Assembly: GCA_043808155.1 (NCBI GenBank)
Contig: JAZDFD010000026.1
Location: 19,817-83,816 of the forward strand
Length of the DNA stretch: 64,000 bases
Origin: Candidatus Iainarchaeum sp.
Lineage (GTDB): Archaea > Iainarchaeota > Iainarchaeia > Iainarchaeales > JAZDFD01
Direction of reading: 5' to 3'
Below the pieces are notes generated by a model. That model made no database searches. It saw only the letters and a list, made by a program, of their open reading frames with translations, and had not been told where the DNA came from. Shown here in pieces: positions 53,943-57,350 of the stretch. How positions within the stretch are numbered: position 1 is the stretch's first letter; each line of letters opens with the position of its first letter. The translations under genes were made by a program, and so were the position numbers.

Positions 53943-54113
53943 GCCCCTGTAGTGTAGCGGCCAAGCATCCTGCCCTTTCAAACCCGCTTTCGAGCGGGTG
54001 GGCCGAGATATGTGTGTTATTTCGTTTTGACTCAATAACACGATAATATTTGAAATCATATCTTAGGCTTTCGAAGACAGGCGGTGACCCGGGTTCGAGT
54101 CCCGGCGGGGGCA
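53943..54113 (+). tRNA. tRNA-Glu(TTC) with a 98-nt intron at or near position 37/38 (about 53981-54078)
   Basis: Hand-folded. GCCCCTG TA GTGT AGCGGCCAA GCAT C CTGCC CTTTCA|intron|A GGCGG TGAC CCGGG TTCGAGT CCCGG CGGGGGC A. Exon CTTT pairs with intron GAAG, leaving a 3-nt ACA bulge at the 3' splice site (relaxed BHB). Confidence 0.85.
53983..54068 (+). ncRNA. conserved structured module, copy inside the tRNA-Glu intron
   Basis: CCCGCT-TTCG-AGCGGG hairpin (53983-53998), the 12-mer CCGAGATATGTG (54003-54014), hairpin GTGTTATT/AATAACAC, and CGATAATAT. Collinear with the tRNA-Leu and tRNA-Ala trailers. Confidence 0.55.
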
Positions 54114-54184: not shown

Positions 54185-55654
54185 CTAATTTTCAATTATT
54201 TTAATACTCACAAGAAATGGTGAGGAAGATGTTGTTGCTATTTTAACTGCCATGCGTTGCACATCGCCGCCGGTAACTTCGGGACCACCTGTGTATCTGA
54301 GTATGCCCCCGCCATCGTTAAAAAACTGCATTGCAGGCGGTGCATATCTTTCTTCATTTGTTATTGTACCCCCGCCATATCCAACTACAGTCTGTTTGTA
54401 TTCAACTCCATAAACCATATCCAATACAAAAACTCTTGGGGCATCTTTTAAAAGTAAAAATTCTCTTTTTTCACCAACAGAAAGTTTTTCATAACCACCT
54501 GAAATTAAATTCAAATATTCTGTTCTTTCTTTATAATTCGTGCCGCAACTTTGATATTCTATTTCTGATTCAGCAGGTTTTTCTGTTTCAGTTCCGCAGT
54601 CATTATTATCTGTACAGGTTCTTGTTCTTGTTCGTGACTGTTCTGAATTAACACATGTACTCCATGCACTCCATGAACTCCAGCCACTGCAGTCCCAATC
54701 TTCAGTACATGGTATCTCATCTAAACATTTAGTTGGGGCGCAACCAAATTCACAAACTTCAGAAGAGGCATAATCACAACTTCCGTCTGAACAGGAGCCA
54801 GTGAAATATCGTGTTTCATTATCACAATATGGTTCACAACTAATTCCTTCACATGGATCGCCCTTACAAGTTCCAGACTCACATCCGAATATACAATTTA
54901 CTTCAGTATATTCGCACACAGGAACTCCAGTTTCTGAATAGCAAACACCATTAATATTTTTTGTGCTTTCATCTTTGCATCCATCTTCGCATATCACGCC
55001 GTCACAGGGATCTGGATTACATAATGCATTTTCACAACCAAATTCACAATTTTCTGTTGAGTAAGTGCAAATAGCATTATTACATATCCCATCATATTTT
55101 CGATCATCAGTATTTATGCATTGATCTGGGTCGCAAACCACGCCCTGACAGGGATCCTCATTACATAAACCATCTGTACAGCCAATAACGCATTCTTTTG
55201 TATCGTAATCACATGAACCATCTACGGGATTGCAAACGCCATTATATTTTTGATTGTTGTCCACATCACATTCATTTTCACAAACTACAGTTTCACACAA
55301 ATCGGGTTCTGATTTGCATTCTCCATCTTCACAACCATAGTCGCAATCCATATCTTCATAATGACAAAAACCATCTAGTGGATTGCATTCACCGTCATAA
55401 TAGAGCGTATTCACGCCCGCACCACAATAATTACCTGTGCAGGTTACACCATCACAAAGGTCTTTAAGCTCAGGAAAAATATCGCCGCCGAAATCATCAT
55501 ATGCACTAATGATTTTATCCTCACCAGTTTCAGATGTGGATTTACCAAATCCGCCAAGATTAGCCATAATGGCAATTAAAATTGCAACAACCAGAAGCGC
55601 ACCTGCGATAAGCAACAGATATTCCATTGAGCCCTGTGCTTTTGAAAATTTCAT
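54185..55654 (-). CDS. pilin-like (class III signal peptide) surface protein with five Cys-rich repeats and a thrombospondin type-1-like repeat
   Basis: N-terminus MKFSKAQGSMEYLLLIAGALLVVAILIAIM has the archaeal type IV pilin signal QGSxEYLLL. Five ~50-aa C-x-GV-x-C repeats span aa 66-315. A TSR-like module spans aa 316-371. A C-terminal ~115-aa domain follows. Confidence 0.75.
   Translation of the reverse strand: MKFSKAQGSMEYLLLIAGALLVVAILIAIMANLGGFGKSTSETGEDKIISAYDDFGGDIFPELKDLCDGVTCTGNYCGAGVNTLYYDGECNPLDGFCHYEDMDCDYGCEDGECKSEPDLCETVVCENECDVDNNQKYNGVCNPVDGSCDYDTKECVIGCTDGLCNEDPCQGVVCDPDQCINTDDRKYDGICNNAICTYSTENCEFGCENALCNPDPCDGVICEDGCKDESTKNINGVCYSETGVPVCEYTEVNCIFGCESGTCKGDPCEGISCEPYCDNETRYFTGSCSDGSCDYASSEVCEFGCAPTKCLDEIPCTEDWDCSGWSSWSAWSTCVNSEQSRTRTRTCTDNNDCGTETEKPAESEIEYQSCGTNYKERTEYLNLISGGYEKLSVGEKREFLLLKDAPRVFVLDMVYGVEYKQTVVGYGGGTITNEERYAPPAMQFFNDGGGILRYTGGPEVTGGDVQRMAVKIATTSSSPFLVSIKIIEN
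54542..54709 (-). other. thrombospondin type-1 repeat-like module within the pilin-like protein
   Basis: CTEDWDCSGWSSWSAWSTCVNSEQSRTRTRTCTDNNDCGTETEKPAESEIEYQSCG contains WxxWxxW, RxRxR and six Cys. Confidence 0.6.
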
Positions 55655-55822
55655 GAAAGTATTACACTTTTGTTATTTAAAATGATTTCCATTCAAGCAA
55701 AAAAGACCCTAATCAGAGGCAGACACCTGTACTGGCAAATCCAAACTAATATAAATCAGAATAATGTTATAATTACAGTTAAATTGCAATAAATATTGCA
55801 AAAACTTAAAGGAGGTGAAACA

Positions 55823-56536
55823 ATGGATTTATTTTCAAAAAACGGATTGCTAGTGTTCGGGGTGTTTTTCATTGCAACAATGGCGATGGCATTTGTACTC
55901 ATGGACAGTTATGCACAGAGTAACTTGACTGGTCAAGGAATTCAAACAGGTTTCTATCCCAGCTCTGTTCCAGTGGAACCGCCAACTAAAGATTGTCCAA
56001 CTGGCATTTGGAATTTCTGTGGAACTGACGGAGACACCTGTGCTGCATATGAAGAGACATACGGTGGTGACAAAGCACAGGTATTTATAAAATGCGATGG
56101 CGGAAACCTGATCGAACAAAGATACGGATTTTACAAGTGTAACTTAAATCACAGACTAATGACGTTAAATCCGGTAAGTGAGAGATGTGAAAGATCTTGT
56201 GGACAATATGCAAAAATCACAGTATTAGAATACTGTGAAGGCGGCTGCAAAAGTGTAGATGGTGTAGCAGCATGTTTGGAGTATGGTCCGTGCTATGGTC
56301 TAGAAGGATATGACGGAAAATCCGGTATGTCACTGGTGGATCAGGCAAGATATCTTGCAGATATAGCAGTAAGAACAATGACAGGCGATCCTGGACAGCA
56401 GTGTCAGATGTACAACATCGTTTGGCCAGTATTCCTTGCAAATCCGACAGAACTTCTAAAAGTAGTAATGTTAACGGAATATAACTGTGACATAGTACCT
56501 GACAAATTGCCAGCAGATTGGAAGGACCCGTGTTAA
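55823..56536 (+). CDS. secreted or anchored Cys-rich protein
   Basis: GGAGGTGA Shine-Dalgarno 5 nt before ATG 55823. MDLFSKNGLLVFGVFFIATMAMAFVLM hydrophobic N-terminus. 16 Cys in the mature part. Confidence 0.6.
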   Translation: MDLFSKNGLLVFGVFFIATMAMAFVLMDSYAQSNLTGQGIQTGFYPSSVPVEPPTKDCPTGIWNFCGTDGDTCAAYEETYGGDKAQVFIKCDGGNLIEQRYGFYKCNLNHRLMTLNPVSERCERSCGQYAKITVLEYCEGGCKSVDGVAACLEYGPCYGLEGYDGKSGMSLVDQARYLADIAVRTMTGDPGQQCQMYNIVWPVFLANPTELLKVVMLTEYNCDIVPDKLPADWKDPC

Positions 56537-56633: not shown

Positions 56634-57350
56634 ATGAAAGACTGGTTTGGTATTGCATTGCTTTTATTGATTTTAGTTAGTGGCTGTACTACGCCAACTT
56701 ACCCTGTTAAGGAAGAACCAGAACCAGTTTGCGGAGATGCAATAACTTATGGTGTTGATGCACAAGGTGCATGCGCTGAATTTCCAACAACCTGTTTGCC
56801 TGAAGGTTACACTAAAGTTAATGAATGCATTAAAGTTTGCGAACCAAAATGCGATGATAAATGTCAGGGAACAACATTTCTCACTGAGGGTGAATGTGAA
56901 AACGGAGAATGCATTTACAAAAATGTTAAAGAAAATTCTTTTGAATGCGGTTATGAAAAAATATTTGACGGTGAAGTGACATTGCAATACTGCAATTATA
57001 ATGAATTTTTTGATAGATATAGTTTTTTCCTTTCAGTAAGAAGTACTGGTGAAATATTGGCAAAAGCAGGTTCAAGTGTTTGGTTGATGACTCCAGACAT
57101 TGATAAAACAAGTTACCAGCCAATTTCAAAAGAATATGCGCAGGGAATTTATTGGTGGCAGGATGTTTTTAGTGACAAACCATATAGGGGTCGAACATTT
57201 AACATCACAGGAGAAGAAGAATTCAAAGAATTTGATTATAAATTTATTTACTGCGAATTAGAAAATAATCTTTATGACAAATGTGATGAAGAAAAAGGTA
57301 TAATTTTGTACACTGGAAATACTGCAGATTGCAATATTGTCAAATATTAA
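56634..57350 (+). CDS. Cys-rich lipoprotein
   Basis: MKDWFGIALLLLILVSGC lipobox; 238 aa. Confidence 0.6.
   Translation: MKDWFGIALLLLILVSGCTTPTYPVKEEPEPVCGDAITYGVDAQGACAEFPTTCLPEGYTKVNECIKVCEPKCDDKCQGTTFLTEGECENGECIYKNVKENSFECGYEKIFDGEVTLQYCNYNEFFDRYSFFLSVRSTGEILAKAGSSVWLMTPDIDKTSYQPISKEYAQGIYWWQDVFSDKPYRGRTFNITGEEEFKEFDYKFIYCELENNLYDKCDEEKGIILYTGNTADCNIVKY

Follow-up and report, generated by a model that had tools for sequence, protein, structure and literature searches.

Does an archaeon carry a thrombospondin type-1 repeat (TSR), an extracellular module considered a hallmark of animals and apicomplexans (PMC3417536), in a pilin-like surface protein? The question is raised by a gene in a 64,000-nucleotide stretch of the genome of Candidatus Iainarchaeum sp. 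(assembly GCA_043808155.1, contig JAZDFD010000026.1, positions 19,817 to 83,816), referred to below as the window. The gene (54185..55654, minus strand) encodes a strongly acidic protein of 489 amino acids followed by a stop codon, with 46 Cys residues and 88 acidic (D/E) versus 32 basic (K/R) residues. An initial annotation had described an archaeal class III signal, five Cys-rich repeats and a segment with a Trp/Arg ladder and six cysteines, all of which are present where it had placed them, and had taken the segment for a TSR, a module of eukaryotic type that is rare in prokaryotes, and for a candidate adhesive module. We find that the segment belongs to a prokaryotic repeat family of its own with a predicted TSR-type fold, and we assign a probability of about 0.6 to the reading that the archaeon, which has a small genome, secretes the 489-residue protein as a rod-like, heavily disulfide-bonded component of its surface, with the TSR-like unit forming the neck and the C-terminal domain the head.

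A prokaryotic family of six-cysteine repeats

The segment comprises residues 316-370 (54545..54709, minus strand; the interval 54542-54709 given originally adds Gly371), reads CTEDWDCSGWSSWSAWSTCVNSEQSRTRTRTCTDNNDCGTETEKPAESEIEYQSC and unites WxxWxxW, RxRxR and six Cys residues within 55 amino acids. WSSWSAW (residues 325-331) and RTRTR (residues 344-348) occupy positions that are kept across the class of long family units described below. Among all six-frame open reading frames (ORFs) of at least 40 residues of the 1.08-Mb genome (873,740 residues) WxxWxxW occurs once, with ~0.75 occurrences expected by chance, and the combination of WxxWxxW followed by RxRxR is found in the genome only at this unit. 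The segment is, on the sequence comparisons, not a chance pattern, because it is conserved in a close homologue and scores 47.8 bits against the profile of its family. This one close homologue, P0002 (assembly GCA_004196315.1), exhibits 54% identity in the region from the unit through the C-terminal domain, with all six Cys, the Trp residues and RTRT being invariant.

P0002 was the one relative of the unit plus C-terminal region that a word-indexed homologue search returned, and the remaining relatives come from an exhaustive profile search of 1.84 billion cluster representatives with a threshold of E ≤ 1e-3. This search gave 243 proteins, most of which match only over a unit of ~60 residues, often several times per protein. 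One of them, P0019 (1700 residues, 26 near-identical repeats, few Cys, odd Pfam matches to RbcS and DUF2079), has the appearance of a tandem DNA repeat translated spuriously or out of frame, and was left out of all family analyses. Against the family profile, which was built from hundreds of units, the window unit also stands out in the ORF search of its own genome (47.7 bits, E = 5.5e-13). It shares with the family the consensus CTExWxCxxWSxCxNGxQTRTCTDxNxCGTTxxKPxExQSC with its six Cys, having CTEDWDC, CTDNNDCGT (the TDxNxCGT turn) and EKP (the KP motif) at the respective positions, and its C1-C2 and C4-C5 spacings are both 6, the value found in 492 and 494 of 495 units, respectively. Profile score, motifs and spacings identify residues 316-370 as a clear member of a large, native prokaryotic family of six-Cys repeats.

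Neither Pfam, in scans of the window protein and of family members, nor NCBIfam, where the scan of the whole 489-residue protein found nothing, yielded a family for this repeat. Likewise, no published description of the six-Cys family was found in the literature on thrombospondin/TSP1 and archaea or prokaryotes. "Thrombospondin genes" are on record for Marine Group II archaea, where the type of repeat is not stated, and are uninformative on the six-Cys family (PMC6461757).

Relation of the unit to the TSP_1 model

In the Pfam scan the unit scored 16.2 bits with TSP_1 (PF00090), and 16.1 bits when excised, as compared to a cut-off of 21.6 bits, and the six-frame genome search gave 12.7 bits; hence, the TSP_1 match expected from the initial annotation is not significant. 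The related model TSP1_CFP_C gave 17.9 bits, with a cut-off of 27. The cysteine layout is also unlike that of a classic TSR, as two extra Cys (C-x5-C) are located N-terminal to the Trp ladder, and the cysteine of the CSxTCG motif is absent, the ladder being followed by STCVNSEQS without a second Cys. By hidden Markov model score and cysteine layout the window copy is thus formally not a TSR, though it is TSR-like in its predicted fold, so that the original designation as TSP1/TSR domain can be kept for the predicted fold and not for family membership.

Other members come closer to the model. Ten members scanned whole in Pfam gave no TSP_1 match at E ≤ 0.1, and 12 of 43 mid-length and long units matched TSP_1 at this level when scanned singly. 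The unit of P0086 (residues 814-861) passes the cut-off with 23.4 bits over model positions 2-44 of 49, and another unit reaches 19.0 bits. With these scores the family lies right at the limit of recognition by the TSP_1 model.

Distribution and origin of the repeat

Of 201 sampled genomes from the phylum of the window archaeon, 59 contain the repeat, as do 28 of the 76 genera in this sample, and a single genome can hold up to 23 matches. Searches with a nine-sequence alignment located close units in named metagenome-assembled genomes of Iainarchaeum, Woesearchaeota, Micrarchaeota, Nanoarchaeota, Aenigmatarchaeota, Methanosarcinales and one Desulfobacteraceae, as well as in 266 metagenome stretches, and a scan of viral contigs revealed no relative of the repeat. 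The domains that accompany the units in family proteins, i.e. CARDB, fn3, SH3b, a caspase-like peptidase, pectate lyase, Laminin_G_3, beta-helix, PG_binding_1, DUF11 and an archaeal S-layer domain, are all extracellular and include enzymes and lectin-like modules; the presence of PG_binding_1 indicates that there are bacterial members.

As the repeat occurs in so many genomes and genera of the phylum sample, it is a native and common module of this phylum. A recent horizontal gain of a eukaryotic TSR by the window archaeon would be in line with the fact that TSRs are best known from animals and apicomplexans (PMC3417536), but it would have to account for a family that is spread over more than a third of the sampled genera and over other archaeal and bacterial lineages, that has its own cysteine layout and its own motifs (TDxNxCGT, KP), and whose window copy scores just ~16 bits with the model of eukaryotic TSRs. 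Moreover, the GC content around the gene (0.38 versus ~0.34-0.37 nearby) is unremarkable. We rejected a recent transfer from a eukaryote on the distribution and the distinct cysteine layout and regard it as very unlikely, and with 243 cluster representatives in the family the notion of a rare eukaryote-type module of horizontal origin is not supported.

A series of Trp:Arg layers

The spacing statistics cover 495 distinct six-Cys units. The C1-C2 and C4-C5 spacings have a constant value of 6, whereas those of C2-C3, C3-C4 and C5-C6 define three classes, (6,9,13) with n = 349, (9,11,15) with n = 49 and (12,14,17) with n = 18, corresponding to unit lengths of ~41, 48 and 55-56 residues, respectively. 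The window unit has spacings of (12,13,17). From class to class the Trp segment grows by three residues and each of the two other segments by approximately two, and the aromatic and basic positions of the ladder rise together (1:1, 2:2, 3:3). TSRs reportedly have a layered architecture, described by Tan and co-workers in 2002, in which a strand with a three-residue repeat and two beta strands are held together by stacked Trp:Arg pairs. The steps of +3, ~+2 and +2 are as expected for one such three-residue-repeat strand and two ordinary beta strands arranged in Trp:Arg layers. We conclude from the spacings and the ladder positions that the family is modular, with one, two or three predicted Trp:Arg layers per unit, and that the window copy represents the maximum of three.

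The cysteines also suggest how the strands are connected. C2 and C4 are absent together in 44 units and each of them alone in just one unit, counts that, like those of the spacing classes, overstate the statistical weight because related units are not independent, although the pattern recurs across many different proteins. This joint loss indicates a C2-C4 disulfide, which would connect the beginning of the Trp strand with the end of the Arg strand.

Variant units without both C2 and C4 are found in P0037, P0050, P0035 and P0058, some of them with a very TSR-like WGSWSPWSEC...RTRTR sequence, and the P0037 unit scores 16.9 bits with TSP_1 and 17.6 bits with TSP1_spondin. Such variants may stand between classic TSRs and the prokaryotic family as intermediate forms.

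Predicted TSR-type fold

We modelled the unit with AlphaFold2 from an alignment of 143 units, with the window unit as first sequence and 142 units excised from family loci. In the resulting model (mean predicted local distance difference test, pLDDT, 91.1; predicted template modelling score, pTM, 0.62) the first segment is largely irregular and regular beta strands are located at query residues 26-32 and 51-57. The prediction for the unit is thus a thrombospondin type-1-like domain that is elongated and has three strands, the first of them irregular. When this model was compared to the PDB with Foldseek, the first 36 places were all taken by TSR-bearing chains, including Sema5A TSR3-4, properdin, TSP-1 TSR1-3, F-spondin TSR1 and TSR4, UNC5, ADAMTS13, C6-C9 and THSD7A, as well as pleiotrophin, the domains of which we take to be TSR-like. 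The best match was Sema5A TSR3-4 with a probability of 1.00, a TMq of 0.56 and a root-mean-square deviation of 3.3 Å over 52 columns. The three-stranded TSR fold that had been proposed from the sequence is therefore supported by the model. The Foldseek E-values are just 0.1-2, which is usual for a domain of 55 residues, and so the argument lies in the exclusivity of the TSR matches and not in any single match.

Sequence searches of the PDB point in the same direction. TSR proteins accounted for 23 of 24 matches with the single sequence, for all 18 matches with a two-sequence profile and for 7 of 8 matches with a 43-sequence profile. UNC5B, C7, C8beta, BAI1, properdin, MIC2, a TRAP-type protein and TSP-1 are among the proteins found, all of the matches being weak (E ~0.02-0.1).

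The likeness to TSRs might still be convergent or artefactual, in that a small disulfide knot rich in Trp and Arg was forced into TSR shape by AlphaFold2 and shares neither ancestry nor fold with TSRs. Such an explanation would fit the sub-threshold Pfam score of the window copy, the weak E-values in all sequence and fold searches of the PDB and a cysteine pattern unlike that of classic TSRs. It fits less well with the +3/+2/+2 steps and the 1:1 rise of Trp and Arg positions, which were obtained from the sequences alone and match a layered fold with a rippled strand, with the near-exclusive recovery of TSRs by three kinds of search, or with the P0086 unit, which passes TSP_1 over nearly the full model; in addition, the pLDDT of 91 was reached with an alignment of 143 sequences. 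We consider convergence improbable and proceed from a predicted TSR-type fold.

The long unit and the C-terminal domain

In the window protein the unit is directly followed by a C-terminal domain of ~119 residues (residues 371-489; 54188..54544, minus strand; ...ERYAPPAM...GGPEVTGGDVQRMAVKI...), which is conserved in relatives. This domain, which we call type A, is also present in P0002, P0012-P0015, P0025 and P0146. As compared to other family units, the window copy belongs to a rare long class, which accounts for 25 of 425 units in the hit proteins, and has three W:R layers instead of one. All 25 long units are found in proteins that end in a C-terminal domain of ~112-131 residues, and 18 of them are the last unit, located directly in front of this domain, i.e. 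112-131 residues from the C terminus. In P0016, P0017, P0020 and P0031 the domain that follows the long unit is of a second type, type B. The combination of a long unit and a C-terminal domain of ~120 residues thus is a recurring cassette.

The type B domain has ~125 residues (...GGEYGYRILNIP...YYPQYHYGFD...NKNxWANG...), is found in P0060 in addition to the four proteins mentioned, and may be a distant relative of type A.

Since the TSR-like unit carries 11 acidic and 4 basic residues, and since long units always occur together with a C-terminal domain, we read the unit as neck or stalk: it would be a rigid neck for a distal head rather than the adhesive part itself. The genome encodes only one further protein of the family, P0029 (contig C2, minus strand, 450 residues), where a Sec-type signal, recognized by eye, is followed by an S-layer domain (PF07752, 55.8 bits), one unit of 48 and three units of 41 residues and a C-terminal transmembrane anchor. 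P0029 is a candidate S-layer or stalk protein in which the units would form a membrane-proximal stalk.

The initial annotation had instead assigned adhesion to the TSR-like segment itself, and a ligand might indeed bind along the Trp-Arg face as in eukaryotic TSRs, the unit being displayed on a pilus for cell-cell or host attachment. The predicted TSR-like fold with three W:R layers, which is the canonical TSR count, would allow this, a class III signal and pilus machinery are present in the genome, and there are established bacterial examples of modular pilins onto which adhesion modules have been grafted (PMC8179133). Within its protein family, however, the unit directly precedes a conserved C-terminal domain, and elsewhere the module adjoins membrane anchors or sits between enzyme and lectin domains; such a generic and abundant module suits a scaffold better than a specific adhesin. 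Further, the faces of eukaryotic TSRs are basic and bind heparin, whereas the unit is acidic. An adhesive role of the unit thus is doubtful, and the role of a neck remains the one that we favour.

Anchoring of the protein

Residues 1-35 (55550..55654, minus strand; MKFSKAQG/SMEYLLLIAGALLVVAILIAIMANLGG) consist of a class III (prepilin-type) signal and a hydrophobic helix. Pfam Class_IIIsignal (PF04021) matches at the extreme N-terminus (residues 4-29; 55568..55645) with 29.8 bits, which exceeds the cut-off of 23.7 bits and confirms the archaeal class III signal that had been suggested; in the six-frame search the leader scored 34.6 bits. The helix is followed by a short acidic linker (residues 36-64; 55463..55549, minus strand) that has no domain match, and the Pfam scan revealed no globular pilin head domain after the helix, the first Cys repeat beginning after the ~29 residues of the linker. 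The leader KAQGSMEYLLLIAG closely resembles the leader KGQGALEYLLLIGG of two pilins of 56 and 63 residues encoded in the same genome, which likewise have no head domain. In total, the genome holds eight class III signal matches, five T2SSE ATPases and two Peptidase_A24 (A24 prepilin peptidase) genes. None of these ATPase and peptidase genes is located on the contig of the window, and the gene of the 489-residue protein lies outside any pilus locus.

A pilus-type locus on contig C13 comprises several small class III pilins (56-167 residues), an A24 peptidase and a T2SSE ATPase. A Cys-rich protein of 979 residues with a class III signal is encoded a few kb from a different T2SSE ATPase.

Display of the protein on a pilus is plausible from these features, and we judge it about equally likely that the protein is built into a fibre, as a minor or tip subunit, and that it is simply anchored in the membrane by its N-terminus. 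If the protein is not a filament subunit, the class III leader would serve export and N-terminal anchoring of a cell-surface stalk protein, an alternative that differs from our reading of a secreted rod with neck and head only at the point of anchoring and that we regard as a real possibility, at somewhat less than even odds. It would be in accordance with the missing pilin head and the position of the gene outside a pilus locus, with the membrane anchor of P0029, the other TSR-like protein of the genome, and with the cassette-bearing relatives, which, as read by eye, use other means of attachment or export: P0002 has a hydrophobic N-terminal segment, P0012 and P0015 are lipoprotein-like, and P0013 and P0014 resemble Sec substrates. 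On the other side, leader and helix closely match the leaders of the 56- and 63-residue pilins, and because these pilins have no head domain either, co-assembly would need just the helix.

Our reading of the 489-residue protein as a rod with neck and head can be put as a sequence of steps. The leader would be cleaved by one of the two A24 prepilin peptidases of the genome, after which the N-terminal hydrophobic helix would keep the protein either membrane-bound or, if it is a modular minor subunit, inserted in a type IV pilus-like fibre. A stiff stalk and neck, made up of the five 8-Cys repeats together with the TSR-like unit, would project the C-terminal domain, and this domain, not the TSR-like unit, would be the likely ligand- or host-binding head.

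Several points weigh against this reading. Concerning the fold, the window copy stays below the TSP_1 cut-off, the E-values of both the Foldseek and the PDB sequence matches are weak, and AlphaFold2, which was trained on TSR structures, could favour a TSR fold for any input rich in Trp, Arg and Cys. As to the head, a search for the type A domain in Pfam and the PDB gave no credible relative, AlphaFold2 modelling of residues 313-489 from a two-sequence alignment yielded a low-confidence model (pLDDT 39) that looks all-beta, and we purely infer that this domain is a head. The pilin part is weakened by the lack of a globular pilin head, by the distance of the gene from any pilus ATPase and by the other cassette-bearing relatives that we read, none of which has a class III leader.

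The 8-Cys repeats

The proposed stalk includes five tandem repeats of ~46-53 residues (residues 65-311; 54722..55462, minus strand), with boundaries at residues 65-117, 118-166, 167-214, 215-265 and 266-311. The five Cys-rich repeats of ~50 residues noted at the outset are borne out by the alignment, in which eight Cys of each repeat stand in register, following the pattern D[PL]CxGVxC...G.C...C.Y...C..GC...C. The repeat is common to P0003-P0011. As searches in Pfam and the PDB gave no match for the 8-Cys repeats, they appear to be an uncatalogued family of their own.

In the apparently bacterial proteins P0003, P0004 and P0006 the 8-Cys repeat (~50 residues, DPCxGVxC...FGCxxGxC) forms long tandem arrays. 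A similar sequence is also encoded next to the gene studied here: residues 69-112 of a neighbouring Cys-rich lipoprotein (56634-57350, plus strand) resemble the 8-Cys repeat of the 489-residue protein with 36% identity over 44 residues and a pairwise E-value of 0.003.

Genomic setting

The genome assembly comprises 1,077,490 bp in 35 contigs and is 88% complete, and an archaeal small-subunit rRNA is encoded within the window. Its modest size and the named genomes with related units make it likely that the organism is of DPANN type. Upstream of the gene, a TATA-box-like element, TTTAAATA (55674..55681, minus strand), is centred ~24 nt before the ATG; read by eye only, it is compatible with an archaeal promoter and a possible leaderless or near-leaderless mRNA. 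A scan for sigma-70 promoters, a model that is inapplicable to an archaeon, gave a count not above that of shuffled sequences. Neither the neighbouring lipoprotein at 56634-57350 nor the protein encoded at 55796-56536 has a credible match in Pfam or NCBIfam. Just downstream of the gene, Rfam recognizes a tRNA of 171 nt (53943-54113, plus strand; 38.8 bits), which was missed by ARAGORN.

Implications

The predicted TSR-like fold is common in surface proteins of ultrasmall archaea, and standard annotation misses the family because its copies lie just under the Pfam threshold; a model of the family would improve the annotation of many "hypothetical" surface proteins. The natural series of one, two and three layers provides a handle on the build and stability of the Trp-Arg fold and on the prokaryotic relatives of a eukaryotic domain. 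With regard to DPANN biology, proteins of this type are candidates for the poorly understood apparatus of cell-to-host contact.

A more far-reaching proposal is that the six-Cys repeat, which belongs to ultrasmall bacteria as well as DPANN archaea, is a true homologue of the eukaryotic TSR and possibly its prokaryotic source, presented here by a modular archaeal pilin that is anchored as pilins are and mediates host attachment. We consider this combination unlikely; if true, the TSR fold would first have been a layer-adjustable stalk module of microbial surface proteins and would have been recruited by eukaryotes later.

Comparison with known systems

Like TSRs of the TSP_1 family (PF00090), the window unit is ~55 residues long, combines WxxWxxW with RxRxR on the following strand, contains six Cys and is predicted to have an elongated shape with three strands. 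The nearest TSRs are those with a Cys just before the Trp ladder, as in MIC2, TRAP-type proteins and properdin, and the C-terminal TSRs of complement C7 and C8beta. Unlike TSRs, the unit is acidic and archaeal, has two additional Cys ahead of the Trp ladder, is without the CSxTCG cysteine and shows no O-fucosylation consensus (CxxS/TCxxG) in its sequence; it has conserved TDxNxCGT and KP motifs of its own, and the co-loss of C2 and C4 indicates a bond between them. Within its own family it differs from the other units in being paired with the C-terminal domain and fused to a class III signal, which none of the other cassette-bearing relatives that we read has.

For the protein as a whole, bacterial modular pilins are, by analogy, the nearest established concept. 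PilB of Streptococcus sanguinis is a modular type IV pilin that combines a pilin module with a vWA module, and the survey of such pilins covers bacteria only and leaves archaea unmentioned (PMC8179133). As in PilB, an N-terminal prepilin-type leader and a hydrophobic helix are followed by large grafted extracellular modules, which a filament would present. Unlike PilB, the 489-residue protein has an archaeal class III signal (PF04021) instead of N_methyl/IPR012902 and no globular pilin head between helix and modules, and it is a putative filament subunit.

A second point of reference is provided by the sugar-binding proteins of Sulfolobus (the 'bindosome'), which have a class III signal and are surface proteins, not pilus subunits. 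The 489-residue protein resembles them in being large and extracellular, in having a prepilin-type leader and in the position of its gene apart from a pilus operon, and differs from them in having a Cys-rich repeat stalk in place of a solute-binding domain.

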